A stretch of DNA of 64,000 nucleotides from Candidatus Woesearchaeota archaeon (GTDB lineage: Archaea; Nanobdellota; Nanobdellia; CAZCWL01; CAZQAZ01), in NCBI GenBank assembly GCA_964591855.1, contig CAZQAZ010000001.1:7591-71590 (forward strand), read 5' to 3'. Within the stretch, counting starts at the first letter, position 1. Each line of letters starts with the position of its first letter. Below, in pieces: positions 2,426 through 59,147 of the stretch. Position numbers and translations under genes: made by a program. The notes under the pieces were generated by a model. That model worked only from the letters and a program-made list of their open reading frames with translations, was not told the DNA's origin and made no database searches.

Positions 2426-2487
2426 GGTTTATATTTGTTGACTCTTTATTTTAATTTAACTTGATAGGGTTGAAATTAAGGAAGGAG

Positions 2488-26352: not shown

Positions 26353-26358
26353 GTAAAG

Positions 26359-27219: not shown

Positions 27220-27226
27220 GTAGCTT

Positions 27227-38942: not shown

Positions 38943-38984
38943 GATTAAGAAAGTTTATAAAACTATTTTAACCTTTCTAAGTTT

Positions 38985-39708: not shown

Positions 39709-41790
39709 TTAGAAGAGAGTAGTCTGCCCTTCAGGAACAAGAGGGCTCTCCCTTAAGAGAGACTCTATTTTATACTTGTTTGATTTGTCTTGAAGTGGAA
39801 GGATTGTGTCTAAAAGTAAACCCACTTTACCACTCTTAAGGCTTCTCTTTCCATTGCTTTCCCTTCCAAAGAGACTATCCAATATCTCTTTGTGTCTTTT
39901 TACAAGAGGTACAACTTCATTCTTTCTCCTCCCCTTGATCTGGTTAGCTATAGACTTTTGCCTCTCTTTAAATAGGGAAGAGTAAACAAAGTAATCCATA
40001 CCAAGAGTAAACTCTTTAATTCTAAGTTCTTCGGGGACTCTTTCCTCTTTTAGTTCTTCTTTTATAACTTCAAGATAAGGAATTAAACTTTCTAGGTCGT
40101 TGTTAAAAACCATATTTAATACGCTGCCAAGGACTTGCTTCTCATAAGGAACTATGTAACCATAGTTCTTCCAAAAGTTTGCACCTATGGAAAATATCCT
40201 GCCTTTAGATTGGAAGAACACCACTCCCTTAGAGCACGATAACAAAACATCTGCAACATCGTATACAAAATAAGAATCAGATGGAATAACATCCTTAGCA
40301 AATAAAAAGTCCTTTGAGACATTTAAAACAACACTATCTTTGAGATCTTCCTTAAGTTTTTTCTTGTAGCTGTCTAATCTCTTTCTAAACTCATCTGGAT
40401 GAATTAAGTGCCTCTTGTAAAATTCTATATGTCCAAGTTCCCCACCTTCACACATCTCTAAGTCAAAAAGTAAGTCTTTAAGGAAGGCGCTGGCAACCTC
40501 TGTTTGAAGCACACCTTCCCCAAGAACATCTTCTAACCCAAAGAAGATGTCTCCTAGAAAAGAAAAGTTTGGATAAAGAACGTAAACGTCCTCAAACCTT
40601 CCTCTTATTATCTCTCTATTAAAGCTTTTCCAGACTTCTCTCATGAACTTCTCTTTAGGGTCAAATTTCTCGAACTTCTTTCTGTCAATTTGGTGTTTTG
40701 GTCTTGAGTAACCTAAGGACCAGAAGTATCTCTCCTTGTACTTCTGGACGAGCCTCTCATATGATGTTGCTCCAAATGTCGAAGGATCTACTCCCAAAGC
40801 CATGGACAAAGATAATACGTCTTCAATTATGTCCATGCCTATGCCGTAACTTAACTGCACATCTTTCATGTTGTACTCAAGTATTGTTCTTTTCGCTTCG
40901 TCGTTGCCCTCTAAAGCTTTCTCAAGATGGCGTGCAAGCTCTTCATGTGAAAGAGCTTTAGTATCGTTTTTCAGATATTCGGCAAGTGTGCTTAGCTTAG
41001 CATTTGGAAAAATCTTGAAGAGAGAAGGGATGTATGTATCTATGAGTATTCTTCCATCGAGCACAAGCTTTGGAGGGAAGAACCTACCTAATTTTTTTGG
41101 AGGTTTTTTGTTCGGTCCTATATTAAATCCTCTTGGATGTTTCTCCATAAGCTTTGGAAGATCGAAGCCTCTTAAGTTTTGATTCATGATTATTAATGGA
41201 TCAACTTTCATAACAAACCTTCTAAACTTTTCAATCAAATCCATCTCATTATCTGCGACAATAACACTGTAACTTGTATCAACTTCAAATTCTGTGGTGG
41301 TGTATATTCTTTCATCCACTACATCCCCATCTTGGGCAGTAAGCACAGCTATAGAATACACTTCGTCTTTAAAAGGATACTTTGTTTCTATGTCGAAGCA
41401 TAAGAGCTTATCATTTAGCAGATCTTCCAAACTCGCCTTACCAAGAACATTAAGATCATCATCGACAATCGATAGTGGAAAGCCAAGTTTCCACCTAAGA
41501 ATCTCTAAATAACTTGGCTTCTCTTTAGGGAAGCCCCTTACGAACCTTTTTCTTAAATCGAAATACCTTTTTGGAAGATTGACCTCTAGAGAGCGATTTG
41601 TAACACCTAGCTTTCTTTGTTTCATGAAGGCCTTTAGATTTCCATATGATTCGTAAAGCTCTTCAATTTTGGACTTTGTGTTGGGATAAGAATAAAAGGT
41701 GTATGGGATTCTATGGGGTAAAACTTTTGATTTGCCATAGTCCCTCAGAATGACTTCTTTGTTTGTCACACCCGTTAGTAGGTATTCCAT
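39709..41790 (-). CDS. Compact family-B DNA polymerase-like protein (693 aa). Exonuclease motifs are intact and motif A is present, but motif C is degenerate.
   Basis: Collinear with archaeal PolB. N-terminal IPYTFYSY. Exo I LLCFDIETKYPF. Exo II IIMNQNLRGFDLPKL. GRILIDTY then Exo III EYNMKDVQLSYG. Motif A-like EDVYVLYPNFSF with Asp retained. Motif B-like SIGANFWKNYGY. No YxDTD motif C was found; the nearest is VFNNDLES. Confidence 0.6.
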   Translation of the reverse strand: MEYLLTGVTNKEVILRDYGKSKVLPHRIPYTFYSYPNTKSKIEELYESYGNLKAFMKQRKLGVTNRSLEVNLPKRYFDLRKRFVRGFPKEKPSYLEILRWKLGFPLSIVDDDLNVLGKASLEDLLNDKLLCFDIETKYPFKDEVYSIAVLTAQDGDVVDERIYTTTEFEVDTSYSVIVADNEMDLIEKFRRFVMKVDPLIIMNQNLRGFDLPKLMEKHPRGFNIGPNKKPPKKLGRFFPPKLVLDGRILIDTYIPSLFKIFPNAKLSTLAEYLKNDTKALSHEELARHLEKALEGNDEAKRTILEYNMKDVQLSYGIGMDIIEDVLSLSMALGVDPSTFGATSYERLVQKYKERYFWSLGYSRPKHQIDRKKFEKFDPKEKFMREVWKSFNREIIRGRFEDVYVLYPNFSFLGDIFFGLEDVLGEGVLQTEVASAFLKDLLFDLEMCEGGELGHIEFYKRHLIHPDEFRKRLDSYKKKLKEDLKDSVVLNVSKDFLFAKDVIPSDSYFVYDVADVLLSCSKGVVFFQSKGRIFSIGANFWKNYGYIVPYEKQVLGSVLNMVFNNDLESLIPYLEVIKEELKEERVPEELRIKEFTLGMDYFVYSSLFKERQKSIANQIKGRRKNEVVPLVKRHKEILDSLFGRESNGKRSLKSGKVGLLLDTILPLQDKSNKYKIESLLRESPLVPEGQTTLF

Positions 41791-41826: not shown

Positions 41827-42771
41827 ATGTGGAGTTTTATGTCCAGAGTCCCAAGAGCATGGAGATTCTCAGATCCAACTAAATGGGAAAGAATTACTCC
41901 AGTTGAACCTTGTGCTAAGTATCCTAGAAGTAAAATAGAATGGTACATGGAGGTCAACAACAACCATAAGTCAAGAACACCCAGGATTTATTCCATATAT
42001 GAGGACTTATTCGAGCAGAACTTAGGGAAGCTAGAAGAATACGAGGTTATTTTTATAACAGGTCTATCTCCAGACCTAACAGAGGTTCCAAACCCATTTG
42101 GCTTCTATCCCAAAACAAGGGGTTTAGACTTGTTCCAAGATCAGAATAGACTGTCGAATGAGATAATGAAAATACATGCAGAGCTTGGGCCAGAGAAGCT
42201 TGAACACATACTTTACTTCCCTATTGCTCCGATAAGTATGCCTGCAAGAATAAAAAAGAAAGGTGATCTTTTGATTTTAGAGCATCCACTAAGGGAAGTC
42301 GTGGACGAGGCCAATAGGAGAAATGGCAGGGGGTTTGGAAGGACGTATAAGATACTAGACCTAAAAAGTAAAAGGTTTGATCTCACACCACACCTTGGTA
42401 ATTATGAATTCTCAAGGTTTTATTATCAGAAGCCACAAAGTGGGCGAGATTTTTACGATGATAATGAACCACAAATATATGAGATATGCAGAAAGTACGA
42501 CATAACCAGAGATGAGCTGCCTTATCTTGTTGGGCTGGCAAGATACATTCACAGGAGAATGTTGGGTGAGAGATTAAAAAGATATGTAGACATTCTTGGA
42601 CTTGAAAACCCACCATTGTATGCCTTAAACACATCTTATGCTTTTGACGTGATGAAAGATGTAGCTTGTACTTCACTTAAGATTGGAAGAAACTTGGAAT
42701 TTCCACACTTAGGCGAGGCGGAGCCATCGGCTCTTAATGTGCTGAAAGGTTATTTGGAGGAGTTCATATGA
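41827..42771 (+). CDS. Hypothetical protein, first gene of an operon divergent from the PolB-like gene.
   Basis: 314 aa, no recognisable motifs. Stop overlaps the next ORF start (ATGA). Confidence 0.45.
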   Translation: MWSFMSRVPRAWRFSDPTKWERITPVEPCAKYPRSKIEWYMEVNNNHKSRTPRIYSIYEDLFEQNLGKLEEYEVIFITGLSPDLTEVPNPFGFYPKTRGLDLFQDQNRLSNEIMKIHAELGPEKLEHILYFPIAPISMPARIKKKGDLLILEHPLREVVDEANRRNGRGFGRTYKILDLKSKRFDLTPHLGNYEFSRFYYQKPQSGRDFYDDNEPQIYEICRKYDITRDELPYLVGLARYIHRRMLGERLKRYVDILGLENPPLYALNTSYAFDVMKDVACTSLKIGRNLEFPHLGEAEPSALNVLKGYLEEFI

Positions 42772-43838
42772 AAAAGTGTCCACACTTTCCATTTATGTGT
42801 GACAGGAATGTGTGTGTTAAGGACGATGATAGATATACATGTGGGTATGATCTACTCAGTCTTTTAGACGAAGAAGATGTTAAGCTATTTGAAGACGATG
42901 CAAAGAAGAATGGGTACCTTGCTTTTCCAATAGAGCTTGGCTTGGCGATGCTGAGATACACTAGTCCAGATGTTTTCTTAGAGGATGGAAAGTCTATCTC
43001 GCTTAGAAAAATATTGGAGGACTATCCCATCTATCCACATGAGATAACTTCTGGAGTAGAACATGAGAAGTATAATTTAACAGCCAGCGAGTTCAATACA
43101 CCTTGTGTGCTTTCAAGAATAATCCAAAAGACAAACTTGGATAGCAAGAATGTCTATGCAAGAATAGGAAGGGTAATACACTTCTTGATGAATGAGCAAT
43201 TGGACAAGCTAATACACAATGAAACACTTTTGAGGATGGGGGCTCCAGCTATGGACAGAAGGATGTATTGTGAAAGAACCTTGGAGTTTGTACACAAAGA
43301 CATCATTGTTCATGGCCATCCTGATGCAATGTTTGAAGTCAAAGACATGCTTGGAGTTTTTGACAACAAGAGATCTATGCATGTTAAGCATACTTACTTT
43401 ACACAGGAGACCATCTACGCCTTAGCCGAAGATCCAAATAGGGAGAGATACTTATTAGTAGTTGCTACTAGACCATATGGTGAGATAGAGTTTGCTGAGA
43501 GACTCCCTAACTTAGATGTAGCTTTGATAAGGAGAGGTGGAGAGGTTATAAGGAGAACACTTAAGGACATAGAAGAATCTTATATGAGACAAGCAGAACT
43601 TTTAAGATCAGATAACCCATTTAAACACGTAAACAAAAGGAACTGCGTAACAAGCTCTGGACCATGTTTTAACTATGAGATATGTAAAGAGCTGTACAAT
43701 CTATGGAGGATTGAGAGAACAGAGCTTATAGACTTGCTAAATGACAAATACACTGAGGAGGTTATGGTTGATAAAGGCTTCCTTGAGAGGGGAAAACACA
43801 TATTACCAAAGAAGCTGGCCCTTCCGCAAGATTTATAA
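42768..43838 (+). CDS. Cys-rich putative PD-(D/E)xK nuclease (Cas4/RecB-like) (tentative).
   Basis: 356 aa. N-terminal Cys cluster CPHFPFMCDRNVCVKDDDRYTCGY. Candidate nuclease motifs IIVHGHPDAMFEVKD / VFDNK (D...D/ExK) and QETIY (QxxxY). C-terminal C-x5-C-x5-C (NCVTSSGPCFNYEIC). The layout resembles Cas4/AddB-type Fe-S nucleases, but this rests on motifs only. Confidence 0.35.
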   Translation: MKKCPHFPFMCDRNVCVKDDDRYTCGYDLLSLLDEEDVKLFEDDAKKNGYLAFPIELGLAMLRYTSPDVFLEDGKSISLRKILEDYPIYPHEITSGVEHEKYNLTASEFNTPCVLSRIIQKTNLDSKNVYARIGRVIHFLMNEQLDKLIHNETLLRMGAPAMDRRMYCERTLEFVHKDIIVHGHPDAMFEVKDMLGVFDNKRSMHVKHTYFTQETIYALAEDPNRERYLLVVATRPYGEIEFAERLPNLDVALIRRGGEVIRRTLKDIEESYMRQAELLRSDNPFKHVNKRNCVTSSGPCFNYEICKELYNLWRIERTELIDLLNDKYTEEVMVDKGFLERGKHILPKKLALPQDL

Positions 43839-44138: not shown

Positions 44139-45674
44139 TTACTCTTTAATTATTCTGCTCATTATGTCTGCGAATGCTGGTCTTGTTATAAACACACCTA
44201 TTGATATAGCTATTATTGTTGTGATTGCAAATCCTCTTAATATTCCTGCTCCAGCAAATGCAAGGGGTATCATTGCTGCTATTGATGAAACAAATGCAGC
44301 AACCACTATGAAGAAAGCTCTTTTAATTCTGTTCTTAATTGAAGTTTCTTCTTCCTTCGATCTTCCCCTTAAAAGCTCATCAACTATCACTATCTGATCG
44401 TCTAAACCTGTACCAACTGCTGCCAACAAACCTGCTATCGATGGAAGATCCATAGTCCAGTGTATTATGCAAGCTATGCCAAGCGTGGCGACTATTTCTA
44501 ATAAAGCTATAAGAACCATAGGTAGGAATATCTTTATACTTCTATACCTTATTAACATCACCACATCAACGAAAACTATAGCAAGTATGAACACCATGAA
44601 TACATTCTTAGCAAATTCTTTACCAAGTAAAGGAGATACTGTGTTCATCTTCTCAACTTCTAATGATACAGGTAAGGAACCTGACTGAAGAATGGCTTGC
44701 ATTCTTTTTAGTTCACTCTCAGCTTCAATTTGTGTAGCTCTAGTACCTGTGATAACAGCAGATGTAACTATCTTCCCCTTTAGATTAGAGACGATGTTAA
44801 GTGAACCTCCTTCTACAGGTTTGCCATCTATATAAAAATCAAGTGTTTCGTTAAGGTAGCATTGTTGTCCTCTGCAGACTTCAGATAATCCAGCCGTTAC
44901 ATTAGCGAATCTCTCGGCAGCCTTCTGAGATATGTCAATCTGTAGTGAATATTGCCATAACTCTTGCCCAGAGCTGGTTACTATTCTATTTATAGTTCTT
45001 GTACACTGTGGAGGACCGCTTAAACAGATACCAACTATGTCTGTACCACTAAAGACTGTTGTATTCCCAATCTTAGCTTCAAACTTTCCTTGCTGGCTTA
45101 GTAACCTCTCAACTTCTTCTCTTGACACACCCGCAAACTCAATTCTTATGTACTGCTTTCCATCCAACCCTTTGATTGGGGTAACTGGTATTTCTTTGAG
45201 ACCATAAACATTAAGTCTCTGCCTTAAGATGCTAAGAAGACTTTCCATTTCCTTGTCGTTAAGTGGTCTCTCAGGCCTTAACAGAACTTCAGTACCACCC
45301 ACAATCTCCAACCCAAATTCTACATTGGTCCTTTTAACATCTGATACGGTCAAGCCAAGAGTGTCATTTATTTTGAATGGGTAAGCTTCCACAGTTTTGT
45401 AGACGTAAGGGAACTTCTTAACTTTGTATTTCACATAGACTATAGAGTTGTTAAGAGATCTTTCAATGGAATAATAATCAGTCACATCTTTTACTTCCAT
45501 ACCATTTATCTCAGTTATAATTGCACCTATTGGAATGTACTTTGATCCAGGCATAACAGCTTGCTTCACAACGACACCGCTTGGGTGTAGTTTAGGCTCT
45601 ATGGCTAATACTGAGAACACTGCAAGTAGTATAACAAGTATTATCTTCCAGTCTCTTAGTATTTTAATCCCCAT
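44139..45674 (-). CDS. secD: Protein-export membrane protein SecD.
   Basis: 511 aa. N-terminal TM, large periplasmic domain, C-terminal 6-TM region with GLDDQIVIVDELL and FFIVVAAFVSSIAAMIPLAFAGAGILRGFAITTII, as in archaeal SecD. Confidence 0.8.
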   Translation of the reverse strand: MGIKILRDWKIILVILLAVFSVLAIEPKLHPSGVVVKQAVMPGSKYIPIGAIITEINGMEVKDVTDYYSIERSLNNSIVYVKYKVKKFPYVYKTVEAYPFKINDTLGLTVSDVKRTNVEFGLEIVGGTEVLLRPERPLNDKEMESLLSILRQRLNVYGLKEIPVTPIKGLDGKQYIRIEFAGVSREEVERLLSQQGKFEAKIGNTTVFSGTDIVGICLSGPPQCTRTINRIVTSSGQELWQYSLQIDISQKAAERFANVTAGLSEVCRGQQCYLNETLDFYIDGKPVEGGSLNIVSNLKGKIVTSAVITGTRATQIEAESELKRMQAILQSGSLPVSLEVEKMNTVSPLLGKEFAKNVFMVFILAIVFVDVVMLIRYRSIKIFLPMVLIALLEIVATLGIACIIHWTMDLPSIAGLLAAVGTGLDDQIVIVDELLRGRSKEEETSIKNRIKRAFFIVVAAFVSSIAAMIPLAFAGAGILRGFAITTIIAISIGVFITRPAFADIMSRIIKE

Positions 45675-46563
45675 GTTTCTCTACCCACAACCTCTGTAGT
45701 CCATTGTTCCATATAAGAGTGAAGATCTCATCAAAGAATATACCCATTATAAGAATTGTTGCAATGTGTTGAATTATAGCTACGTTACTTAAGGCAAGCA
45801 TTGTGAAGTATACTGTGTATGAGGATAGGTCTTGTGTTAATTCTGTTTTAAGAGCCTTTCTTATTCTGTAGCTCAAACTTCCTTCCCTTCTTTTTAAGAT
45901 GTTTGTTGATAGGAGTATGTTGGAGTCTGTTGAGTAACCGACTATCATAAGCAAAGCACCTATTGTTGCTGTGGTGAACTTAATCCCCAATAAATTCATT
46001 AGACCAAGTATACATATTATGTCTCCCACGACACTTATTATAATAGCAAATGTGGCGAAGATATTTCTAAAGTAGTAATATGAAACAAGTGAGACTAAAA
46101 GGAAGGAGAACATAAGTATGTACACTATTTCATGGAAGAAAGTCTTTGCTAAACTTGGACCTTGATATCCTATACTAACATCCTCCTCTGGTAGGGGATG
46201 AAATATTGAACTTAGTTTGTTCATTATCATTGTTTTGTTTTCATTTATGTCAAGCTGCATTGAATACCCAACCACTCTGTTACTAAAAGGTTCTGTGAGA
46301 ACTCTAACAGTCACATCATCTGTGCCAAAGACTTGCTTTAACTTAGATTCGAGCAAGTGTGGGTCCATGCTCTCATTTGTGGTTACGGTTATAGTTGTTC
46401 CTCCTTTGAGTGAGACGTCTTTATCTATGAATTCACCTGTTTTTATTTTGTTATTAAGAAGGACTGCTCCAAAGACTATGACAAGAATTAAAGGAATGAT
46501 CATAAGTTTCTTGTAATTGGCCATGTAATAGGACCAAAACTTTTCAAAGCCCTTGCGTATCAT
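45664..46563 (-). CDS. secF: Protein-export membrane protein SecF.
   Basis: 299 aa. N-terminal TM, small periplasmic domain, C-terminal TM bundle (GLMNLLGIKFTTATIGALLMIVGYSTD). Immediately upstream of secD and overlapping it by 11 nt, as in archaeal secF-secD pairs. Confidence 0.8.
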   Translation of the reverse strand: MIRKGFEKFWSYYMANYKKLMIIPLILVIVFGAVLLNNKIKTGEFIDKDVSLKGGTTITVTTNESMDPHLLESKLKQVFGTDDVTVRVLTEPFSNRVVGYSMQLDINENKTMIMNKLSSIFHPLPEEDVSIGYQGPSLAKTFFHEIVYILMFSFLLVSLVSYYYFRNIFATFAIIISVVGDIICILGLMNLLGIKFTTATIGALLMIVGYSTDSNILLSTNILKRREGSLSYRIRKALKTELTQDLSSYTVYFTMLALSNVAIIQHIATILIMGIFFDEIFTLIWNNGLQRLWVEKHGD

Positions 46564-46586
46564 CGTATCTTCTAAATGTTTTCTTA

Positions 46587-46606
46587 CTTATAAATATTTA
46601 TAAAGG
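46587..46606. promoter_or_regulatory. Palindromic A/T TATA-like element in the divergent secF / envelope-operon intergenic region (possible bidirectional promoter).
   Basis: cttataaatatttataaagg; the core ttataaat|atttataa is a perfect 16-nt palindrome. It sits about 25 nt upstream of secF ATG (minus strand) and about 22 nt upstream of ATG 46627 (plus strand). Confidence 0.4.
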
Positions 46607-46626
46607 TGGAGCTTCTTGTAAGAAAT

Positions 46627-47838
46627 ATGAGAAAAGCGTACAAAGCTGCTCCTCTGATCGTTATAGCCATGGCGGGCATGATAATATTCTACCTTATTAT
46701 GATATACCCAACAGAAAGAGCAGAGTTATTGGGTTATTTACATAACAACACATCAATTGGACAGCAGTATATACACACGCGTTCTGTTACTCCCGGGGCA
46801 ATAGTTGATACTTACTCTAGTATAGGGTATGTTGGGCAGGCAATGGGTCAAGAGTTAGATAAGATAGTGATATCCAAAGTAGATTTGGAGTACCCTTTAG
46901 TCAAAACTCAAAAAAAAACTGTTTCTTCTTTTGTTTTGACTTCAAACATACTAAGAGCAACGCCCTATGAGACTTATGTAGACATAGAACCCTCAGCAAG
47001 CAGTGCTGAGGTTGAGATAGATATTGGAGACGTTTCTGGAACCCCAAAGCTTATAGTGGAATTCAATGGCAATACAATATTTTATTCATCTGTTCAATCT
47101 GGTGAGAAGCTTAAGATAAAAGTTCCAAAGTCCATGCTATCAGCAGTTAACACTCTGACTTTGCGTTCAAAGTTTGTTGGCGTGAACATATTCTCAACGC
47201 AGACAATTACAGTGCAAGAAGTGAGAGTTTACTCCATAATGTATGATCCTTTAAGAGCAAAGGATAGTTATTACAGAGACTTAAGTGTGGATCCAAAGGG
47301 TTTTGGCTCAATGGTTTTATCCTTTGGCACCACTTCTCTTGGGGAGGCAGCTAAGGTAAAGATCACACTCAACGGAAAGACCATCTTTAATAAAGTTCCA
47401 AATGAATTAGAATCCATGAGGAGTGGCCTTGTTGGAATACCCTTACGTAAAACAAATAACTTAATAACATTCGAAACAGAGAAGGGAGGAGTTTACACTT
47501 TAGACAATGTTAAGTTCTCATTCTATGCTGAAAAGACAGGTAGGGCTCAGCAAAAAATAGTATTTGATGTCCCAGCGGATGTTTTTGCTTACGATAAAAA
47601 TGTTACAATAACTGCTTACATCGGTGAGGTTTTAATACCAGGTACTTTGGAGTTCAACTTAGAGTACCCAGGTGTTTCTTACATAGCTGACATAAGCTCA
47701 AAACCTGGACCTGTTACAGTACAAATAGAAGATCCACAAACAGAGTTAAGACCTTATGGTAACTTGTTAATCTTAGATTCTCCAGATGGAAGGTTTAGAG
47801 TCGATAAGATTGAGATAAAAGTAGAAGATGTTGAGTGA
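46627..47838 (+). CDS. N-terminally anchored extracellular protein (hypothetical), first gene of a 6.5-kb envelope-protein operon.
   Basis: ATG 46627 (MRKAYKAAPLIVIAMAGMIIFYLIMIY, TM). The track start GTG 46606 lies only about 5 nt from the palindromic TATA, so ATG 46627 is preferred. The large ectodomain has sequons. Confidence 0.5.
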   Translation: MRKAYKAAPLIVIAMAGMIIFYLIMIYPTERAELLGYLHNNTSIGQQYIHTRSVTPGAIVDTYSSIGYVGQAMGQELDKIVISKVDLEYPLVKTQKKTVSSFVLTSNILRATPYETYVDIEPSASSAEVEIDIGDVSGTPKLIVEFNGNTIFYSSVQSGEKLKIKVPKSMLSAVNTLTLRSKFVGVNIFSTQTITVQEVRVYSIMYDPLRAKDSYYRDLSVDPKGFGSMVLSFGTTSLGEAAKVKITLNGKTIFNKVPNELESMRSGLVGIPLRKTNNLITFETEKGGVYTLDNVKFSFYAEKTGRAQQKIVFDVPADVFAYDKNVTITAYIGEVLIPGTLEFNLEYPGVSYIADISSKPGPVTVQIEDPQTELRPYGNLLILDSPDGRFRVDKIEIKVEDVE

Positions 47839-49904
47839 GTATGGCTAAGAAAGGTATCAAGGACATAATAAAGGAACATCCTGAAGACATAATAGGGATG
47901 GCTGCAGCTCCAGAAGCTGCAGCACCTAAGCTTGTGAAGGATGTACTTGAGACTCAGAAGGAGACTGCTGAGGCTGAGAAGAAAGCAGCCAAAGCTAAGG
48001 AGGCTGCCGCGAAAAGTCAACCCTCTGGAGGTGGAGGAGGTTCTTCTGGTGGTGGATTTGGCGGTGTAGGTGGGGGAAGATTTAATAGAGTAGGCATTTG
48101 GGCAGGTTTAGGTATAGTTTTTATATTTATCATAATTATACTTATAGGAGCGATGGTCCCAACTGCAAGACATATGCTCTCCACACAAGGGAGCTTTAGC
48201 TTTGGGCTAGGAGAACTCATAAAACAAATAGCAGGTATTTCTGTAGTTGGACCCGTTGAGACGGAAAAGGAAGTTAAATCCGGACCAACACTAGCTACAA
48301 CACCCTTCTATTCATTTAGGATAGATTCTGTAGAAGTATCTCCAATGAAAGGGCAGATGTTCTTCCCAGGTGGTTCTGTAACAGCTAAGAACTTTGACAT
48401 AGAAAAAGGAAGCACATACGAAGTTAGGAAGGCAGGAGAGACAATACTAACCAAAACTGCAAGTGAGAGTATCACAGCCCAAGCTGCCTGTGACTCTGCT
48501 GTTAATGAGCTAAATGGTGATGATAACCCAGACAACGATGTCACACCAGATGATATAGTCGTAGTTTATAGTGGTATGTACTATCCTTGTGGCGATGATC
48601 ATGAAATAAAGTATATAAGCTCGGAAGGTGCAGGCCAAACTTTTTCCATCAGAGTTCTTGTTAGGAATACAGGAGACAAAGAGGCTGACAATATGACTTT
48701 AGTTATACTCCCAAAGCCAAAGGATTCGTGGTGTAACATTGGCGGGGAGGATAAAATGTTATATAAGCTTGGTTCTGGAGAGTCAACAGAGTTCTGTGAC
48801 ACAGTATACCTAGATGAGAGTGGAGGTTATACTAACTTCGACGCGTGTGCTAAAAGCTTTACATTGGAGAAAGCAGGTACATACTTCTCATCTTGTAAAG
48901 TTAAGTTTGGATGCGTGAATAACTTTGTAGGGAAAGTCTCGGGGATATTTGAGAATACAGGTTGTGAATGTGACCCTTCGGCTGAAGAAGGATGTGGGTG
49001 GTTAAATAATGTTTACACTCCAAATGTTTATGCAAGACTTGTTGGACCATACGTCTCTACAACAAGACTTGATATACAGTTCATGGATGGAGATTATTAT
49101 GACATCCTCACGAATCAAAACTTGTTTTATCCGTTTGTAAGAACTGCTACTAATTCTTGGGGTGCAGTAACTCTTTATCTTGATACAGCAAGTGAAAAAC
49201 AGCCAATCTTATCCTTTAAGAGCGCTCCTATGGATACGTTCACTTTAAGAGTAAAATACGATGTCCCTCAAAAGAAAAGTGGAAGAATATTAGAGCCATT
49301 TACTGAGAACATACCAGGAACCAAGTCAGCAACGTATGGAGACATACAAAAGATCTTGAATAGAAAGAACAGTGATGTATGGCCATGGGAAGGTGATGCA
49401 ACCACAACTTTCAACAAGTACTACAAAGAAAGACTATACATGTTGATACCATCTACACTTTTGTTCATTGGGACTCCTTATGAGAATCAGTTTAAACACA
49501 AAGGAGGTGAATTTAAGAATAGCATAGTGATTAACAATTTGGTATGTGGAGACTATGTGTATGATAAACTTTGTGATCAAAATTCAGACGAATATAAAAA
49601 CTTCATAAGTAGAAACCTTGAGTTTAAGAAGGTAGCAGACAGTTACTGTAGAGAAACTGCTAAGTCAAATGATGGGGAATATAAAGGTATAGGTTACCTC
49701 GTTTGTGAGGTTTATGATGGCAAGATAGGAAACATTGACTACGAGTTAAAGGAAGGTGAGGAATATCAGTTCCCACTTCATGTACCTAACTTGAATGGAG
49801 AATCTGTTAACAGAGTGACATACTTAATAAGGGCTGATTTATTATACTACTTTGTATATGAAAAGGACCAACAAAATCCAATTGTTATATACAGCAAAAT
49901 TTAG
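47835..49904 (+). CDS. Membrane protein with A/E/K-rich and Gly-rich cytosolic N-terminus, single TM and large Cys-containing ectodomain (hypothetical).
   Basis: 689 aa. GTG 47835 overlaps the previous stop; ATG 47841 is an alternative start. SGGGGGSSGGGFGGVGGGRF, then TM IWAGLGIVFIFIIIILIGAMV, then a roughly 580-aa ectodomain. Confidence 0.5.
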   Translation: MSMAKKGIKDIIKEHPEDIIGMAAAPEAAAPKLVKDVLETQKETAEAEKKAAKAKEAAAKSQPSGGGGGSSGGGFGGVGGGRFNRVGIWAGLGIVFIFIIIILIGAMVPTARHMLSTQGSFSFGLGELIKQIAGISVVGPVETEKEVKSGPTLATTPFYSFRIDSVEVSPMKGQMFFPGGSVTAKNFDIEKGSTYEVRKAGETILTKTASESITAQAACDSAVNELNGDDNPDNDVTPDDIVVVYSGMYYPCGDDHEIKYISSEGAGQTFSIRVLVRNTGDKEADNMTLVILPKPKDSWCNIGGEDKMLYKLGSGESTEFCDTVYLDESGGYTNFDACAKSFTLEKAGTYFSSCKVKFGCVNNFVGKVSGIFENTGCECDPSAEEGCGWLNNVYTPNVYARLVGPYVSTTRLDIQFMDGDYYDILTNQNLFYPFVRTATNSWGAVTLYLDTASEKQPILSFKSAPMDTFTLRVKYDVPQKKSGRILEPFTENIPGTKSATYGDIQKILNRKNSDVWPWEGDATTTFNKYYKERLYMLIPSTLLFIGTPYENQFKHKGGEFKNSIVINNLVCGDYVYDKLCDQNSDEYKNFISRNLEFKKVADSYCRETAKSNDGEYKGIGYLVCEVYDGKIGNIDYELKEGEEYQFPLHVPNLNGESVNRVTYLIRADLLYYFVYEKDQQNPIVIYSKI

Positions 49905-49932
49905 GTGATGCGAAATCAAGAAAGAACTCTTT

Positions 49933-51024
49933 GTGTTTGGAGTGGTTTTGGTAGCCATGCTTGTAATGGGCTGTATAGGTGTTGGTCCGACTGAAGAAAA
50001 GGAAACAGTCCTTAGACCAAATCAAGGTGTTGGCGTCGTACCTGGTGGAGTTTATGTTTTAGACTCCAAGGTAAAGCCTGGTGCTATAACATCCGTAGTT
50101 GTAAAAGTAAGAAATAATTTAGAAGGACAGCCGGCTAATAACATAGTAGTTACTTTAGATAATGTAGCCCCCCTAAGAATACTTTGTAGGGGTGGAAGTG
50201 GTGCGGTGGAAGAGTTCTTTGATAACTTCCCAAATTATAAAGAGGGATACGAAGCTTGTGGAAGAGATTACTCTCTAGACTTAGATTCCAATTTAAAACT
50301 TAATCAGCATGGTGTGGTTAAACTTGATCCTGGAGAGGAGGTTGAGTTTATCTGGCCAATACGCACGCCGGACAGAGCAGTTCTCGCAGGAATGAAATAT
50401 GAGCACACTCTTTACTACACAATAGATTATGACTACAAGCTTAAAGCACAGGAAAGTATTGTTTACCTATCAAACCAAGAGTACTTGAGATTGAAGCAGG
50501 AGAACAAAACCTTAAATTATCCATCAACATTTAGACAGACAGCAGGTGAGTTCAAGCTCTACCCACAAACTGTTAATCCATTCCTTTACTATCCATCGCA
50601 AGGTATAGCCCAAGTTGCATCCATTAACTACAACATAGAAAACAACGGAGACGGATTCATACCTCCAGATTCAAAGCTTGTTATAGTTCTTCAGTATCCT
50701 AAAGAGATGGAACCTGACGAAACTTACTCTGAAAAGAGATGGATAAAGGGAACAGACTTAGATAATGAGAGAATCAAATCCATATTGAAGCACTTCCCAG
50801 ACATAAACTTAAATAGAATACTTTACAAAGAACTTGATCCTTCCTTCTTAAGGAAGGGCTTTAGGTATCCAATCTCTGCACCTTTAACTCTAACTCAAGA
50901 CGAGCTTAACTCCCTTATAGAAAATAGCATCCCTAGTAAAACTTATAATATTCAAGTTTATGTATTTTATAAGTACAGGTTTGAAAAATCAAGCAAAATA
51001 ACGATCTATCCTGTAGAAATATAA
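49933..51024 (+). CDS. Putative lipoprotein with CARDB-like N-terminal domain.
   Basis: 363 aa. Signal peptide with lipobox-like LVMGC. GGVYVLDSKVKPGAITSVVVKVRNNLEGQPANNIVVTLDN resembles a CARDB fold signature. Confidence 0.5.
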   Translation: MFGVVLVAMLVMGCIGVGPTEEKETVLRPNQGVGVVPGGVYVLDSKVKPGAITSVVVKVRNNLEGQPANNIVVTLDNVAPLRILCRGGSGAVEEFFDNFPNYKEGYEACGRDYSLDLDSNLKLNQHGVVKLDPGEEVEFIWPIRTPDRAVLAGMKYEHTLYYTIDYDYKLKAQESIVYLSNQEYLRLKQENKTLNYPSTFRQTAGEFKLYPQTVNPFLYYPSQGIAQVASINYNIENNGDGFIPPDSKLVIVLQYPKEMEPDETYSEKRWIKGTDLDNERIKSILKHFPDINLNRILYKELDPSFLRKGFRYPISAPLTLTQDELNSLIENSIPSKTYNIQVYVFYKYRFEKSSKITIYPVEI

Positions 51025-51037
51025 GGAGGAAAAAAGA

Positions 51038-51994
51038 ATGAGAAATGAAATAATTGTTTTTGTGGCAGCCATACTAGTGCTTTCAGTAATGTACGGTTGT
51101 GTAGACGTTAAATCTTTTATACCTGGCGGAGAGAAGGAACAACAGCAGCAACCAACAGGCGGTAGAGTAGAGTACTCTAAGGCTGTTTTTGGGGAGTCAA
51201 TGGATGTGACAGAACTTTATCCCGGACAAGCAACAACTCTCTTAGTAACAATTAATAACACATGGGAAAACCCTATCAAAAATGTAAAGATTCAGTTGAA
51301 GGGAGCAAGCTTTGTAGTCAGCAGTAGTGTTTTGGACACGATGGTAAGCGTTGACAAGAAAGAAGCAACAGTAAACAATGTAAACCCTGGAGCTTATTCC
51401 CAAAGATCTTTTGTGATAAGAGTTCCAAGAAAGTTAGTTGAGCGAGTAAATGTTTACCCAAGAATCTGCTTCGACTACAATCAAACAATAGCTAAGGACA
51501 TCGTCCTTGTCCCAGACTCAGCAACACAAGTTACCACACCCTCACATTACACAAATGAACCCCTAAGTGTTAGGATTCCAACAAATAAAATACTAGCAAC
51601 AGAGTCTATTGTTGGTGAAGGAGGAACAGAGTCATACTTAAGTTACACAGTTGGTGCACAAAGCGTTGATAGCATTGAGAAGCTTTACAACTTCACATTT
51701 GATATAAGTACAGACGATTACTTGGGAGGCATTAACAGCATATCTCTTGCAGAACTTTCTTCGGACAATGGAGACTTTGCTTGTGAGGAGTACACGTTCA
51801 CAGATGATCAGAAAAGAGAAAGGTGTTACCTTACTAAAGAATACGAACCACAGATAAAAACATTATCAGGAAGTGTAGCAGTAAGCATTGATAATCCAGT
51901 AGAGTCTGAAACATATGAAAACGTAGAGATTGTAGCAGAAGGAAGGTACTGTGTCAACCTTCCAACTATAACAATAAATGTGAAGAAAGTATGA
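51038..51994 (+). CDS. Putative lipoprotein with CARDB-like domain; paralog of the next gene.
   Basis: 318 aa. Signal with SVMYGC. LYPGQATTLLVTINNTWENPIKNVKIQLKG. Shares the (P/A)RICFDY motif with ORF 51991. Confidence 0.5.
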   Translation: MRNEIIVFVAAILVLSVMYGCVDVKSFIPGGEKEQQQQPTGGRVEYSKAVFGESMDVTELYPGQATTLLVTINNTWENPIKNVKIQLKGASFVVSSSVLDTMVSVDKKEATVNNVNPGAYSQRSFVIRVPRKLVERVNVYPRICFDYNQTIAKDIVLVPDSATQVTTPSHYTNEPLSVRIPTNKILATESIVGEGGTESYLSYTVGAQSVDSIEKLYNFTFDISTDDYLGGINSISLAELSSDNGDFACEEYTFTDDQKRERCYLTKEYEPQIKTLSGSVAVSIDNPVESETYENVEIVAEGRYCVNLPTITINVKKV

Positions 51995-53142
51995 GCCAGA
52001 AAAACCTTTTATTTTTTATTATTTTAATTTCAGTAGTGGTTATTCTATCAGGTTGTGTTAACCCTCCAAAGACCGAAGAGAAAGAAGGACCAAGTTATAT
52101 TCCTTCTGTCTTCTCAGCTAATTTAACATTCAGTAAACCTTTAAGTGGGGGAAGACTTGTCTTAGCACCTGGAGAGCAAGTCACTGCATATCTTACATTC
52201 GCCAACAAGGGTAACGCTCCAGCAAGAAATGTTAAGGCTATTCTTTATGGATGCAACTTAGATATCAGTTCGAACACAGGTGAAGAGGTATATACTTTAG
52301 ATAGTGTTAATCCAGACGATACGAAGACACTAACGTGGCAGATTGTAGTCCCTGAGGACTATACTGGCAAATGTTCACTCACTGCAAGAATTTGTTTCGA
52401 CTACACAACAGAAGGATATAAAGAGATTGAGATAGGAAAACAAGGAGAGGTGTCTTCAAGTAGGAGTGTGGAGTACACAAGCCCAGGCCCTATAAACTTA
52501 TCTTTCAACTTTGCAGATAGATATGTGGTATACAAAGATTACTCTCCCATAACCTTTAAGATCAAATACAAGAATGTTGGTGGAGGAAGAATACAATACG
52601 TTGGAGAGCCAGATAAGACAGATCATGTTGACTACATAGAAATGACTGTAAGAGACGGTGCAGCTTTCTTAGGCGGCGACTTCAGTGAATGGACGCATGT
52701 TGAAATCCCAAAGTACTACTCCAGTTTACAAGACGCATTCTATAAGGAAGAATTTGTACCAGCAGGACTATCTGGAGAATACAACTTCGAGCAGGTATTC
52801 AATAGAGAAGTATATGACATGTACATAAAAGATAAATACACTACACCAGAAGATATTCTCGAGCAGGAAGAAGTTGACTTTGGATTCTACACAATGAACT
52901 ACACACTCAGTGAAGATAGTCCAGCATGGAACTTGAGCATGTGGTATGATGAGGACCACGAAGGTAAAGGTTGGGCGGATAGGAACGAGCTTAAGTTTGT
53001 GGGTAATACCTTAGAAAAGAGAGCTACTTTTTATATTAATAAGTCAGCTGTAGAAGGATCTGAAACATTCAATGTTGGTACCAAAATAAAGTATTCTTAC
53101 TGTATTACAACAGGGACAACAAGTGTTGTTGTAGAAGAATGA
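51991..53142 (+). CDS. Putative lipoprotein with CARDB-like domain; paralog of the previous gene.
   Basis: 383 aa. Signal with ILSGC. LAPGEQVTAYLTFANKGNAPARNVKAILYG, ARICFDY. Start overlaps the previous stop (ATGA). Confidence 0.5.
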   Translation: MSQKNLLFFIILISVVVILSGCVNPPKTEEKEGPSYIPSVFSANLTFSKPLSGGRLVLAPGEQVTAYLTFANKGNAPARNVKAILYGCNLDISSNTGEEVYTLDSVNPDDTKTLTWQIVVPEDYTGKCSLTARICFDYTTEGYKEIEIGKQGEVSSSRSVEYTSPGPINLSFNFADRYVVYKDYSPITFKIKYKNVGGGRIQYVGEPDKTDHVDYIEMTVRDGAAFLGGDFSEWTHVEIPKYYSSLQDAFYKEEFVPAGLSGEYNFEQVFNREVYDMYIKDKYTTPEDILEQEEVDFGFYTMNYTLSEDSPAWNLSMWYDEDHEGKGWADRNELKFVGNTLEKRATFYINKSAVEGSETFNVGTKIKYSYCITTGTTSVVVEE

Positions 53143-54800: not shown

Positions 54801-54882
54801 ACCTATTGTACGATAACAGGGAATATAAATCTTACTAAATTTTCCGGTAATATTTATATAGCAGAATTGTTCTATATCACTA

Positions 54883-57800
54883 TGGACTTATATAAAAACA
54901 TCTTTTCCTTGGTTGCTTTTCTCATTTTACTAGGAGCAATATTTGCAACTTCGGATGTGGATAGTATATCTTTTGTACCTACTTATTCTTCTGGACATTG
55001 CGGGGATACTTTAGTTTCTGGAGATGTCATAACAGAAGTCGTGAACATATCTGTAGCTCATTCAGGAGATTCTATTTACAATGCAACTATTAAATTACTC
55101 AATACGACACAGAGTGATTTTATAATTAATCAAGTTTTATCGAATCCTGAGAACTTGACATGTACAAAGCAAAGTGATTATGTGATAGAGTGTGTAAATA
55201 GTACAGATTCAGGACTGGTTTCGGCTGTCCCATTAAATATCTCTTTGAATATGAGTATTAATAGGAGCAGCTTGTGTTCTCTTGATAAGGTTTTCACGTA
55301 CACATTTGAAATAAATTTAACGAACAAAACAAGTATTATTAATGGGTCAAGTGATGTGCTTCAATTAGATGCACAAAAGCCTTATTTCGCTGGGCAGATA
55401 AACATTCTGACACAATACCCGAATGTGTCTTATTATAATGGTTCCGTTTATTACATAAAAGGTGGCTACAATGCAAGTATAGCTTCAGATGATGCATTTT
55501 CTGGTATAGCAAGTTGTAATTATACGATTAATGCATCGGGGCAACCTGTTGTTTGGGCACTTTCTACATATAATGGAACACATTGTGTAGTTTCTGATAT
55601 CTCATTTGGCTCGGAGACAGAGCACTTATTAAGCTTTAGGGTTAGGGACAAAGCATTTAACTTTAATGAGAGCTCTGCTGTTACATTAGTGGAAGACGTC
55701 TCACCACCCACTATAGATTTTGTAAGTCCGGTATTAACGTATGTTGGTTCCGGCAAACTCTTAAAGGTAAACGTAACTTTTGTGGATAAAGGATCTGGTG
55801 TAAATACAAGTTCTGTACTCATAACAAATAATGAATCCCTACCGTTTGTAGGAAGTACACAGTGTACTTCTGGTGCAGGCGTTGTTTATTGTAATAATTC
55901 TATTGATACATCCGGTTTTGCAGGTATGTTGAATATAAGTGCATCGATTAAGGATAATGTCCAGAATGCAAACCTATCAAGTGTGGTTGTAAAGGTATTG
56001 CATGTTAGGGTAGACAATATTACAGACCAGGATAATAATGTGCAGAGCTTAGTTGGTCTTGCAACAAATTGGGTAAAGCTAAAGGTGAACGCTACGAATA
56101 ATACGCAGATTGGTGTTAATATCACTCATAAGGGGATATGTTTAGGTCAAGATAATGTGCCTATGCAGTATAATGACACCACTGGTTTATGGGAATATAA
56201 TTGTAGTTTAAATCACTCGGCTATGGTATCTGGGGAACAAAATGTTTCTGTGTTTGTATACCCTCTTGTAGACGAGAATGCAATAAATGATACAAGAAAC
56301 TTCACAATAAACTATGATGACCAGAGACCTGTTGTTGTATTTGACTGGTGGGACACTGAAGATATAGATGGTAGTAGTGTTAGAATACCTTCTCCTTTAT
56401 CTATACTCAGTAATCCAGACTTCTTTTTCTCACCGAATGATAATGAGATATGGTTTGCTGTCAATGTTACAGACAATATTGGGATTGATAGAGTGGTAGT
56501 TAACTTAAGTTCGATAAATATGTCCAATCCTGGAAATACATGCTATGGTTTGCTGGATCTTACGTACAATAGCACTACATCGTTGTGGGAAGGAAATTGT
56601 TCACTAGGTGTATTCAACGAGAGTGATTTGAACAGGAATGATCCATATGGTGGGCCATTACAATCATCAGATATAATCATATCTGTGTACGACACTGCTG
56701 GTAATGAGAACTGGTTTTATAATTCAAGCGGTACTGAAACGAGCTCCATACAAAGCGTTTGTCCGTATGGGATTAACCCACAAGACTACCCTGAATGTTT
56801 GCAGCCATTTATACCAGTAATAATACATGACTTAGGTACTCCAAATAGTTTAGACCCATGTATGCATTTTGGTCCCGAAACTACAAACTTTAATAATGTT
56901 CTCAATTTCTCAAGTGTTAACTTAGTACTTGAAATACAATTGAACATGTCTTGCTTTGATCCATCCCTACCAAGTGACTTTATAACTATGAATAAATTTG
57001 AATTCCAGTCATTGGACTTCTTTGACCAACAGACAGTAGCAAAGATGAGCTTGCTTCCTTCGGCTTTACAGGTGAATATTACGCCCCCAGGAATGTTCGG
57101 AGACTCAAGAATTTATATAAATTCAACTTTATTCTCGGAACTCAATACGAATTCAACTATAACTTTGTACCACCTTCCATTTATTTCCATGCCTACCATA
57201 GTTGCAGACCCCGGAGCTAGGGGTTATAATCAAACTAGCATTAGTTGGGTTTCAGGCTATGATCCAATATTTGGAGTTTGGACCGGAAATCTAACATTTA
57301 AGGTATATGGATTCTCAGGATATAATATAACAGATAATACACCCCCAACTATAGAATTTAATTATCCATTGAATAATACGAAGTACATGCCACCCGTTAA
57401 CAATGTTAATGTAACTATTAATGGTACGGGTACTCCATTAAGCTTTGTGAATATAACTCTCGATACAGCAAGTTATATTTACAATGCTACAAGTGATGTA
57501 AATACCGCTAATTGTACCTCTGCTAACAATGAGACATTTTATTGTAACCTAACAGACTTAGGAATAGAGTCTGGAACGCATACGGTCAGGGTTGTGGCCT
57601 ATGACTATGGTGGAGAATATCCAGGAAATAATAATTCATCTGAAATAAGTTTTTCCATAGACTCGATACCTCCAACAATATCTAACATAAGTGTTTCCAA
57701 CATAACTAATTCTTCTACTGCAATAATCTTTAGTACGAATGAGTTATCAACTTGTTTTGTTAAGTTTGGGGAGTCCAGTAGTCTTGGAGAGCTAACACCT

Positions 57801-59147
57801 TCTATACAGAATACTACATTTAGTATAAATTTAGTCGGTTTAAACTCATCAGTTCTATATTACTATTCGGTAAACTGTACGGATCTCGCAGGCAACTCTG
57901 TGGAGTCATCTATTTCAAACTTTACGACAGCTGAGAGTGTGTACGAAACCCTTGATAATTCCTCTACGAATTATGTAACTATAAATGTTACACAAAATGG
58001 AGTAGTATACAAGTTGGTGGAGTTTGAATTGAATGTTAAGGAAAGCACTTCTGCAAGTATAAATGTCACGAAATACAGCAGTAATCCTGAGTCTGTGGGT
58101 TTGGGTGTTAACTCTCTTAATAAGTATATCTCTATAGACTCAAATTTAAATTCGAGTAAGATAGACTATGTCATTATTAAAGTTTACTACACAGATTCGG
58201 AGGTACCAGAGGGTGTAGACGAATCTTCACTGAGATTATACTGGTTTAATGAGTCAAGTAACGAGTGGGAAAGAGTTCCTGGTGGGGTGGATACTGTAAA
58301 TAATTATGTTTGGGGGAACACTACACACTTTAGTACTTATGGTATAGGAGGTTTGCTAGCAAATGGTCAAAGTTGTTCCTCAAATTCAGAATGCGCTTCA
58401 GGTATCTGTTGTGAGGGTTTATGTTCGTCTACATGTGGAGCCGAAGCAGAAACAGGAGGAGCGGGAGCTGGGGTAGATTTAGATAGCTATTTCTGGTTCT
58501 TTAAGAGTAATGTGCAGGCAGGAGAGACTGTGGATATAGATGTAAATAAACCTGAAAATCCTATTGGTAGCATAAAAATTAGGTTTGGCACAAGTGTAGA
58601 CAATATAAGGATTAATATCCTTAAACTACACTACAAGCCAATGGGGCTTCCTGACTTGTTGGATGTTTATTCTTATATAAGTATCTTACACTCAGGCCTA
58701 GAAGAACAGAATATCGAGAAAGCAGAGATAAACTTTAAGGTGGACAAGAGATGGCTTTTAGATAGAGGTTATGATAAGTTGGGTATTGTTCTTGCAAGAT
58801 ATGAGAAGGGAGAGTGGACGGATCTAAGTACGGACTTTGTTAAGGAGGATAGCGATTACTATTACTACAAAGCGGAGACTCCTGGATTTTCGTATTTCGC
58901 AATAAGGTATGAAGAGCCGGAGGGCGTGGAGGAGCAACCACGACCTACCGTTGTTGAGCCAACAGGGCCAACAAAGGAAGAGGAAGAGTCAGCCAAGCAG
59001 CCGGTAAAGAATGTAACAGAGCAGGTGGTAAGTGAGGAAAAGAAGCATAATTATGTTTATACAGTAATACTCATATTACTTATTGTGTTAATCTCAGCCT
59101 TTCTCTTTGCGATAAAGGGAAGGTTCTTAGCGAAGGGTAGACGCTAA
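54883..59147 (+). CDS. Giant type-I membrane-anchored, sequon-dense cell-surface protein (1421 aa; S-layer/adhesin-like).
   Basis: Start ATG 54883 (MDLYKNIFSLVAFLILLGAIFATS, signal peptide). The track start 54738 would overlap eif2a. Very dense NxT/S sequons. Cys-rich EGF-like GQSCSSNSECASGICCEGLCSSTCG. An E/K/P/T-rich stalk. C-terminal TM VYTVILILLIVLISAFLFAI plus basic tail KGRFLAKGRR. Confidence 0.75.

Follow-up and report, generated by a model that had tools for sequence, protein, structure and literature searches.

A five-gene operon (genes A to E) was analysed on the plus strand, from 46627 to 53142, of a 64,000-nucleotide (nt) stretch of DNA from a Candidatus Woesearchaeota archaeon (contig CAZQAZ010000001.1), referred to below, at its full length, as the window. 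A-E is a genuine operon of unannotated, lineage-restricted protein families, and it is divergent from the genes for the Sec translocon accessory proteins SecF and SecD. The interpretation that we tentatively prefer, with slightly less than even confidence, is that A-E constitute one leaderless polycistronic operon encoding a lineage-specific, membrane-tethered envelope module. The five genes are:

46627-47838, plus strand: gene A, 403 amino acids (aa), a transmembrane (TM) helix and an all-beta ectodomain, no Pfam, NCBIfam or PDB match
47841-49904, plus strand: gene B, 687 aa, a cytoplasmic head, a TM helix and a Cys-rich ectodomain
49915/49933-51024, plus strand: gene C, 369 aa (from ATC 49915) or 363 aa (from GTG 49933), lipobox VMGC at 49963-49974
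51038-51994, plus strand: gene D, 318 aa, lipobox MYGC at 51089-51100, GGAGG Shine-Dalgarno (SD) sequence upstream
51991-53142, plus strand: gene E, 383 aa, canonical lipobox LSGC at 52045-52056, a paralogue of D

Operon layout and protein families

An earlier note, made from the sequence alone, had described six genes with overlapping stops and starts. The co-directional open reading frames (ORFs) number five, and the tight packing stands, but while D and E overlap by 4 nt (ATGA) the other junctions have small gaps. The stop codon of A (47836-47838) is separated by 2 nt from the ATG of B at 47841; an alternative B start, GTG 47835, would give a 4-nt overlap with A. The gap between B and C is 10-28 nt, depending on the C start, and that between C and D is 13 nt. 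With GTG 49933, the mechanically called start, the signal peptide of C lacks the charged n-region that all orthologues have. Six bases 3' of a GGTGAT SD sequence there is an in-frame ATC (49915), from which the protein would read (M)KKELFVFGVV..., and the orthologues start MKK.... Because of the upstream GGTGAT and the orthologue-like N-terminus we suggest that C probably starts at the non-canonical ATC 49915 rather than at GTG 49933. SD-like sites are thus seen at internal genes, GGAGG upstream of D and GGTGAT upstream of C. This is the arrangement commonly seen in archaea, where the first gene is leaderless and those after it are SD-led.

Related loci were all from Nanoarchaeota/Woesearchaeota, and one C orthologue is labelled Candidatus Woesearchaeota. 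Their gene content is as follows:

L005: secD-secF, divergent A-B-C-D-E, then MJ0043_C, PAC2 and eIF2alpha
L008: secF, divergent A-B
L004: A-B-C (fragments)
L002: A-B-C'-E'
L003: A, divergent helicase-secF
L009/L010: helicase-His_Phos, divergent A-B-C-D
L012: B-C-D
P0008 contig: B-C and three genes of D/E-like size (314, 302 and 304 aa), then MJ0043_C and PAC2

The core is A, B and C plus one to three D/E-type genes, and the order is constant in every related locus recovered. The order A-B-C-(D/E)n, kept in L005, L008, L004, L002, L003, L009/L010, L012 and P0008, shows that the genes are conserved as a block, on which the earlier note had made its proposal depend. The families are also very rare. 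Of 1.84 billion cluster representatives only 4 matched the B ectodomain in an exhaustive HMMER search, and C as a profile query yielded 5 clusters, while full-length B matched only itself in a word-indexed search of 5.8 billion proteins. Scanning a genome collection with SecF gave two loci and scanning metagenomes with the B alignment gave one. The operon diverges faster than its neighbours: identity to L005 is 59% for SecD, 57% for SecF and 54% for PAC2, compared with 37% for A, 39% for C, 29% for E, 29% for B and 23% for D. Faster divergence is typical of envelope proteins. The density of sequons (N-x-S/T) in A-E, 0.15-1.3 per 100 aa, is at background level (SecD 0.98).

Protein A has a short, basic N-terminus (MRKAYK), a signal-anchor TM helix at residues 8-27 (nt 46648-46707), a conserved YP(T/S)E(R/K) motif and then an all-beta ectodomain of ~370 aa; it contains no Cys. 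The ectodomain may consist of about three weakly repeated modules of ~95 aa, for which the hhalign result (E ~0.002-0.003, low probability) is suggestive only. Orthologues of A in L005, L008, L002, L003 and L009 are 24-37% identical, and comparison of A with B-E found no relationship. The N-termini of the A proteins align (MRKAYKAAP in the window, MRKTQYHAAP in L005, MRRAQIQIP in L002). This alignment and the spacing of the TATA box described below argue against GTG 46606 as a start of A, which is therefore rejected. In L005 the gene calls cut both A and B short. The true ATG of A, at 8561 (region 8561-8636), restores the TM helix, and the K/A/E-rich head of B is encoded, in the same frame, ahead of the start called at 10001 (region 9766-10001).

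The three proteins C, D and E have, as the earlier note had recognized, signal peptides ending in a lipobox-like Cys (VMGC, MYGC and LSGC, respectively), and theirs are the sole lipobox-like N-termini among ORFs of at least 100 aa in the 64-kb window. The G-C of the lipobox is invariant in all orthologues (at least nine). E agrees with the lipobox pattern [LVI][ASTVI][GAS]C throughout, C and D only at positions -1 and +1. The paralogy of D and E extends over the first ~160 residues (BLAST E = 4e-11). The shared (P/A)RICFDY motif that had been pointed out previously is present as PRICFDY in D (51458-51478) and as ARICFDY in E (52384-52404), and is conserved as [RK][IV]C[FY]DY. The D/E type has two invariant Cys besides that of the lipobox, one in RIC and one in a C-terminal YC motif (51944-51958 in D; YSYC at 53092-53109 in E). 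C, whose orthologues are P0006-P0009, carries YYTIDYDY at 50410-50436. In an hhalign comparison of C with D/E (98.5% probability, E = 2e-15, ~180 columns) the IDYDY of C aligns with [IV]C[FY]DY, which identifies C as a more distant paralogue of D/E at the sequence level.

An AlphaFold2 model of C built from five sequences has a predicted local distance difference test score (pLDDT) of 73.4 and a predicted template modelling score of 0.71. It contains two beta-sandwich domains, at residues ~33-180 and ~207-360, each with an unusually long terminal strand. Foldseek searches of this model against PDB and BFVD gave only generic tandem immunoglobulin (Ig) matches (E 1e-6 to 1e-7, template modelling score ~0.2 over the full length), including integrin thigh/calf and complement domains, the AglB peripheral domain, MSCRAMMs, arrestin-like proteins and a viral DUF11 protein. 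The model thus supports a prediction of two tandem Ig/CARDB-like beta-sandwiches for C.

The earlier note had also called the N-terminal domains of these proteins CARDB-like. Sequence scores are below threshold, while the predicted fold of C supports an Ig/DUF11-like domain. E scored 24.3 bits against NPCBM_assoc over 24 residues (cut-off 24.4) and B scored 14-15 bits against CARDB (cut-off 22.7), both below the gathering score; A, C and D had no match to the hidden Markov models of CARDB (PF07705), NPCBM_assoc (PF10633) or DUF11 (PF01345). NPCBM_assoc matches were found in only two of five D/E-type orthologues. The likeness to these three families consists of the signature L.PG....(V/F).(V/I).N.G...A.NV.V.L and the predicted beta-sandwich of C; the difference is a family-specific closing strand, [IV]C[FY]DY or IDYDY, and a two-domain architecture that has no named counterpart.

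No known system claims these proteins, an outcome that the earlier note had seen as decisive for its proposal. Searches of the five proteins and their orthologues against Pfam, NCBIfam and PHROGs gave nothing over threshold, and PDB profile searches with five alignments gave nothing significant. The best PDB match of a 10-sequence profile of the C/D/E N-domain was TasA (5of1, 8aur), which was not significant (E = 0.46-0.57 over 45 residues). There was no Pfam match of A-E to TasA/Peptidase_M73-type proteins, and none of any member or orthologue to TRAP or Rotamase/PrsA. With regard to substrate-binding proteins, no such family matched A-E and no permease or ATPase genes were present in any locus. 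The Pfam scan of the neighbourhood covered 42 window ORFs, a few ORFs lying outside it; enzyme, transporter, pilus and viral signatures were absent from the cluster and from the nearby ORFs scanned, as were an assembly ATPase, a platform protein, a prepilin peptidase and a SipW-like peptidase from these 42 ORFs. Two further identities were rejected. The IMG/VR scan with the C alignment found no loci, and a proviral or viral origin is excluded by this and the lack of PHROG matches, together with the housekeeping flanks. An S-layer identity of A-E is excluded by size (318-687 aa), N-terminal anchoring and sequon density.

Protein B is distinguished by its cytoplasmic head. The A/E/K-rich and poly-Gly head before the TM helix that had been noted earlier is present and is 83 residues long, with a K/A/E-rich part (47841-48023) and an 18-residue poly-Gly run (48024-48077) followed by the TM helix (48090-48158). 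The same plan, a charged K/A/E segment, a Pro- or Gly-rich linker and a TM helix, recurs in P0002, L008, L009 and, upstream of the called start, L005. The ectodomain has 14 Cys, a CARDB-like stretch (48642-48713), GCECD (48960-48974), an invariant GPYVSTTRLD motif (49044-49073) and a conserved C-terminal strand (49809-49853). When compared with the C/D/E domain profile, B gave a collinear alignment that crosses both hallmark motifs, SIRVLVRNTGDKEADNM with VKVRNNLEGQPANNI and GPYVSTTRLDIQF with IDYDYKLKAQESIVY, and that is not significant (E 0.028, probability 1.7%). Because of this lack of significance, we treat the possibility that B is a very diverged paralogue of the C/D/E domain as a hint only.

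The secF/A spacer and the secDF neighbourhood

The features of the divergent region are:

44139-45674, minus strand: secD, matching Pfam SecD_SecF_C and the NCBIfam archaeal SecD model (context only)
45664-46563, minus strand: secF, matching Pfam SecD_SecF_C and the NCBIfam archaeal SecF model (context only)
46587-46594, minus strand: TATA-like box TTTATAAG of secF-secD, its centre ~27.5 nt before the secF ATG (46563)
46588-46603, no strand: perfect 16-nt palindrome TTATAAATATTTATAA, with halves TTATAAAT and ATTTATAA, inside the spacer
46597-46604, plus strand: TATA box TTTATAAA of the A-E operon, its centre ~26-27 nt before ATG 46627

The spacer between secF and A, given as about 40 nt in the earlier note, is 63 nt long (46564-46626); it would be 42 nt only if A started at GTG 46606. 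The perfect palindrome described there is present at 46588-46603. As a palindrome it is statistically unremarkable, since a scan of the window found 3 perfect 16-mer palindromes compared with 1.7 expected, and its meaning lies in its position. TATA-like boxes centred 25-31 nt upstream of the start codon are found at many first genes of the window, and in L005 TTTATAAA is located 25.5 nt ahead of the corrected A start. Archaeal TATA boxes lie ~26-27 nt upstream of the transcription start. Together with the spacing of the two boxes, this suggests that the A-E and secF-secD mRNAs are most likely both leaderless. We read the palindrome as two putative back-to-back pairs of a B recognition element (BRE) and a TATA box, in which each half would serve as TATA in one direction and as an A-rich BRE (RNWAAW-like) in the other. 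This reading of the TATA box also places the start of A at ATG 46627, not at GTG 46606. The palindrome was proposed to drive both transcription units. In this genome its position agrees with back-to-back TATA boxes, but the arrangement is specific to it: L005 and L008 do not have the palindrome and have two separate TATA-like boxes in longer spacers.

A second divergent pair in the window consists of a GalT/HIT-like gene (38058-38942, minus strand) and a gene at 38985-39407 (plus strand), separated by a 42-nt spacer (38943-38984). Within this spacer lies one TTTATAAA, at 38954, which is a palindrome in itself and has its centre 27 nt ahead of the start of the plus-strand gene. This genome therefore has more than one divergent promoter that uses a palindromic TATA.

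The position of the operon next to secDF had been taken to suggest co-regulation with the translocon, a suggestion that comparison of the loci weakens. Direct divergent adjacency of secF and A is found in the window, L005 and L008. One gene, encoding a Hel308-like helicase, lies between A and secF in L003, and three genes (the helicase, a UPP synthase and a geranylgeranyl reductase) lie between them in L002. The same helicase (43% identity) and His_Phos adjoin A in L009/L010, where secF is beyond view. The divergent partner of gene A in L002, L003 and L009/L010 is thus the helicase, or His_Phos followed by the helicase. No copy of the Hel308-like helicase is present in the 64-kb window. The simplest history would be an ancestral order secD-secF-...-helicase with A-E divergent from the helicase, which would then have been lost from this position in the sub-lineage of the window. 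The downstream PAC2 and eIF2alpha genes are equally syntenic. Because the whole neighbourhood, including these two genes, is conserved, proximity to secDF carries little specific weight and is best explained as general synteny, that is, as inherited gene order. That A-E are Sec-dependent surface proteins, as was also proposed, is reasonable from their signal and anchor sequences, but this says nothing specific about SecDF.

Flanking genes and other features of the window

The window is chromosomal DNA of a low-GC DPANN archaeon (GC ~38%). Its gene content includes archaeal SecD and SecF, PAC2, eIF2alpha, ribosomal protein L15e, a 5S rRNA gene and giant surface proteins. The closest genome by SecF in a GTDB-based collection is the Nanoarchaeota metagenome-assembled genome DPANNHV_H2.bin.89, with 47% identity. 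The PAC2 gene is convergent on E and is located 2 nt beyond its end.

The giant surface proteins are sequon-rich. There are three of them, of 4363 aa (2461-15552), 2370 aa and 1422 aa, with 3.8-5.1 sequons per 100 aa. The 1422-aa protein (54879-59147, plus strand) carries a signal sequence at its N-terminus and a TM helix, with KGRR after it, at its C-terminus. It contains 73 sequons (5.1 per 100 aa), and from these sequence features it looks like a better candidate for an S-layer or coat glycoprotein than A-E. A rhomboid protease gene (15559-16224, plus strand) begins 7 nt 3' of the gene for the 4363-aa protein, and the protease could process that protein. The 2370-aa protein belongs to a second surface-protein cluster (19240-29831, plus strand), in which four genes for small proteins (286, 529, 154 and 185 aa), secreted or with a TM helix, come after it; none of these has a Pfam match. 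The 2370-aa and 286-aa proteins have in common a C-terminal motif of ~25 residues, LYxWIxxP...AQxYNATWTI, that could be a sorting or processing signal.

Two side observations concern replication genes. A fused PriS-PriL primase is encoded at 59443-60711 (plus strand) as one 422-aa ORF with Pfam matches to both the small and the large DNA primase subunits. A 693-aa protein (39709-41790, minus strand) has domain matches only to the family-B DNA polymerase exonuclease and RNase_H_2, and two ORFs without matches (41827-43838) come after it; this may represent a split or degenerate PolB.

Possible functions of the operon

If A-E encode an envelope module, transcription would start ~26 nt 3' of the TATA box at 46597-46604, A would be translated leaderless, and B-E would be translated by way of short SD sites or translational coupling. 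Nearly all of the mass of the five products would be extracellular, with the N-termini as membrane anchors. In A and B the anchor would be an uncleaved signal-anchor helix with the N-terminus inside, and in C, D and E a lipid on the invariant lipobox Cys, added after Sec export, presumably by the archaeal AliA-type pathway. The ectodomains would be tandem Ig/CARDB-like domains in C, D and E, possibly a very diverged copy with a Cys-rich insert in B, and about three beta-rich modules in A. These non-enzymatic domains would form a hetero-oligomeric complex or layer that lies directly on the membrane and is covered by the giant coat proteins with their heavy glycosylation. Its function would be one of structure, spacing or contact, with the conserved basic head of B as the sole cytoplasmic handle. 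We infer the lipidation, the complex formation, the location below the coat and the structural role; what leads us to favour a non-enzymatic, membrane-hugging assembly under the coat is the combination of fast divergence, background sequon density, the lack of enzyme, transporter, pilus or viral signatures and the reported prevalence of lipobox proteins in DPANN, where AliA is reported to be prevalent as well (PMC12462473). Archaeal lipobox lipoproteins are exported by Sec or Tat and lipidated via AliA/AliB (PMC12462473). C, D and E resemble them in the short hydrophobic signal that ends in an invariant G-C, with the canonical L-S-G-C in E, but differ in that their mature domains belong to no described lipoprotein family and are not substrate-binding.

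Several points weigh against this interpretation. The -3/-2 lipobox positions are non-canonical in C (V-M) and D (M-Y). The AlphaFold2 model of the B ectodomain, built from a four-sequence alignment, reached a pLDDT of only 47 and is unusable, and Ig-like domains point to no particular function. A low number of sequons is compatible with any extracytoplasmic protein that is not glycosylated, and is not specific to a place below the coat. A purely structural role would account neither for the conserved basic head of B nor for the fact that secDF stays nearby.

The head of B would be accounted for if A-E formed an exoplasmic cradle of the Sec translocon, placed around the exit of SecYE-beta/SecDF, which would receive or fold nascent chains such as those of the 1400-4400-aa surface proteins, and in which the conserved K/A/E-rich head of B would contact the ribosome or the translocon from the cytoplasm, in analogy to TRAP or the Mycoplasma Mdp dome. 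We regard this as improbable, at not much above the level of speculation. In its favour, secF directly adjoins A, in divergent orientation, in the window, L005 and L008 and is one to three genes away in L003 and L002; the two promoters are fused into one palindrome in this genome; and low sequon content and membrane-proximal tethering are compatible with it. Adjacency to secF is not universal, however, the helicase being the divergent partner elsewhere, and synteny alone, which extends to PAC2 and eIF2alpha, explains the linkage. Moreover, A-E evolve about twice as fast as SecDF and are restricted to a very narrow clade, while SecDF is widespread, and no sequence match to TRAP or PrsA-like families was found. 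The precedents themselves are real. In TRAP, the alpha, beta and delta subunits have Ig-like lumenal domains that make up a cradle on Sec61, and TRAP-alpha has a charged tail that binds to the ribosome (PMC10279528). The dome of M. pneumoniae is an extracellular chamber built by three paralogous lipoproteins and touching SecDF (bioRxiv 10.1101/2025.04.25.650208). Like TRAP (SSR1-4), A-E comprise several small single-anchor proteins with trans-side Ig-like ectodomains, one of them with a charged cytosolic tail, and their genes adjoin those of the translocon accessory SecDF; unlike TRAP, they have N-terminal or lipid anchors instead of a C-terminal TM helix, no multi-pass subunit resembling TRAP-gamma and no sequence homology. 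With the Mycoplasma dome (Mdp436/444/489 and MPN523) they would share three paralogous N-terminally lipidated proteins, as predicted for C, D and E, in a genome-reduced organism. The Mdps, however, are large PrsA/parvulin-like foldases, whereas C, D and E are predicted beta-sandwich proteins that have no foldase signature. The TRAP comparison is only an analogy. The fold of C is Ig-like, as in TRAP alpha, beta and delta, but this fold is generic. That A-E are an independently evolved archaeal counterpart of the TRAP/Mdp chambers, with a ring of B-E and A over SecYE-beta/SecDF and the head of B docking the ribosome, and that they aid export and folding of giant DPANN surface proteins, is a suggestion that we would put forward only as a long shot.

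Other readings turn the ectodomains outwards or make them polymerize. A-E could be outward-facing adhesins or ligand-binding lipoproteins whose Ig/CBM-like domains bind the surface of a host, on which this DPANN cell putatively depends, or polymers, singly or as a loose set, in the manner of SusE/F or MSCRAMM; this we consider unlikely. The fold matches of C to MSCRAMM adhesins, PrgB Ig domains and cohesins point in this direction, as do weak Pfam hints of NPCBM_assoc, CBM-like and SusF_SusE domains, every one of which is below threshold. Fast divergence and a number of D/E paralogues varying from one to three are both typical of proteins at a host interface, but the genes strictly keep their order and occur together, which points to an obligate complex and not to independent adhesins. 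Short, N-terminally tethered proteins would also lie buried under the 1400-4400-aa glycoproteins, and no transporter, glycosidase or sortase-like partner was found nearby among the ORFs scanned. A fibre or pilus, formed by donor-strand polymerization as in TasA and the archaeal bundling pili or with A as a type-IV-pilin-like protein with a class III signal peptide, is the least probable of the readings, and very unlikely. The N-terminal strand-pair motif that the C/D/E domain shares with TasA, the TasA match (E ~0.5) and the long terminal beta-strands of the C model are what it would build on, and the N-termini of the A orthologues of L009 (KRG/QYAVPF) and L002 (RRA/QIQIP) are loosely class III-like. 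The TasA match, however, is not significant and covers only a generic 'PG...N.G...NV' strand pair. A of the window (MRKA-YKAAPLIV) and of L008 (MEEQTPIAAP) misfit the pilin cleavage pattern [KR][GA]/[hydrophobic], where the slash marks cleavage. The lipid or TM tether on every N-terminus clashes with a donor strand or an extruded fibre, the N-termini of A-E being tethered and not free donor strands, and the ORFs scanned include neither pilus machinery nor a SipW-type peptidase. Compared with a translocon chamber, we find the case for the adhesin and for the fibre or pilin weaker still.

The host-associated life of DPANN archaea depends on the cell surface, and almost no DPANN envelope proteins have been characterised. 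With five unannotated, strictly co-occurring families that are all membrane-tethered, this operon provides a concrete candidate for an envelope complex of Woesearchaeota-like cells, and with C, D and E it includes likely archaeal lipoproteins that do not belong to the substrate-binding class usual for them. If the weak link to secDF is not functional, A-E would be an ordinary but well-defined lineage-specific surface gene cluster. Should that link prove functional, they would be the first archaeal extracytoplasmic chamber associated with the translocon, and would be relevant to the origin of TRAP-like accessories.

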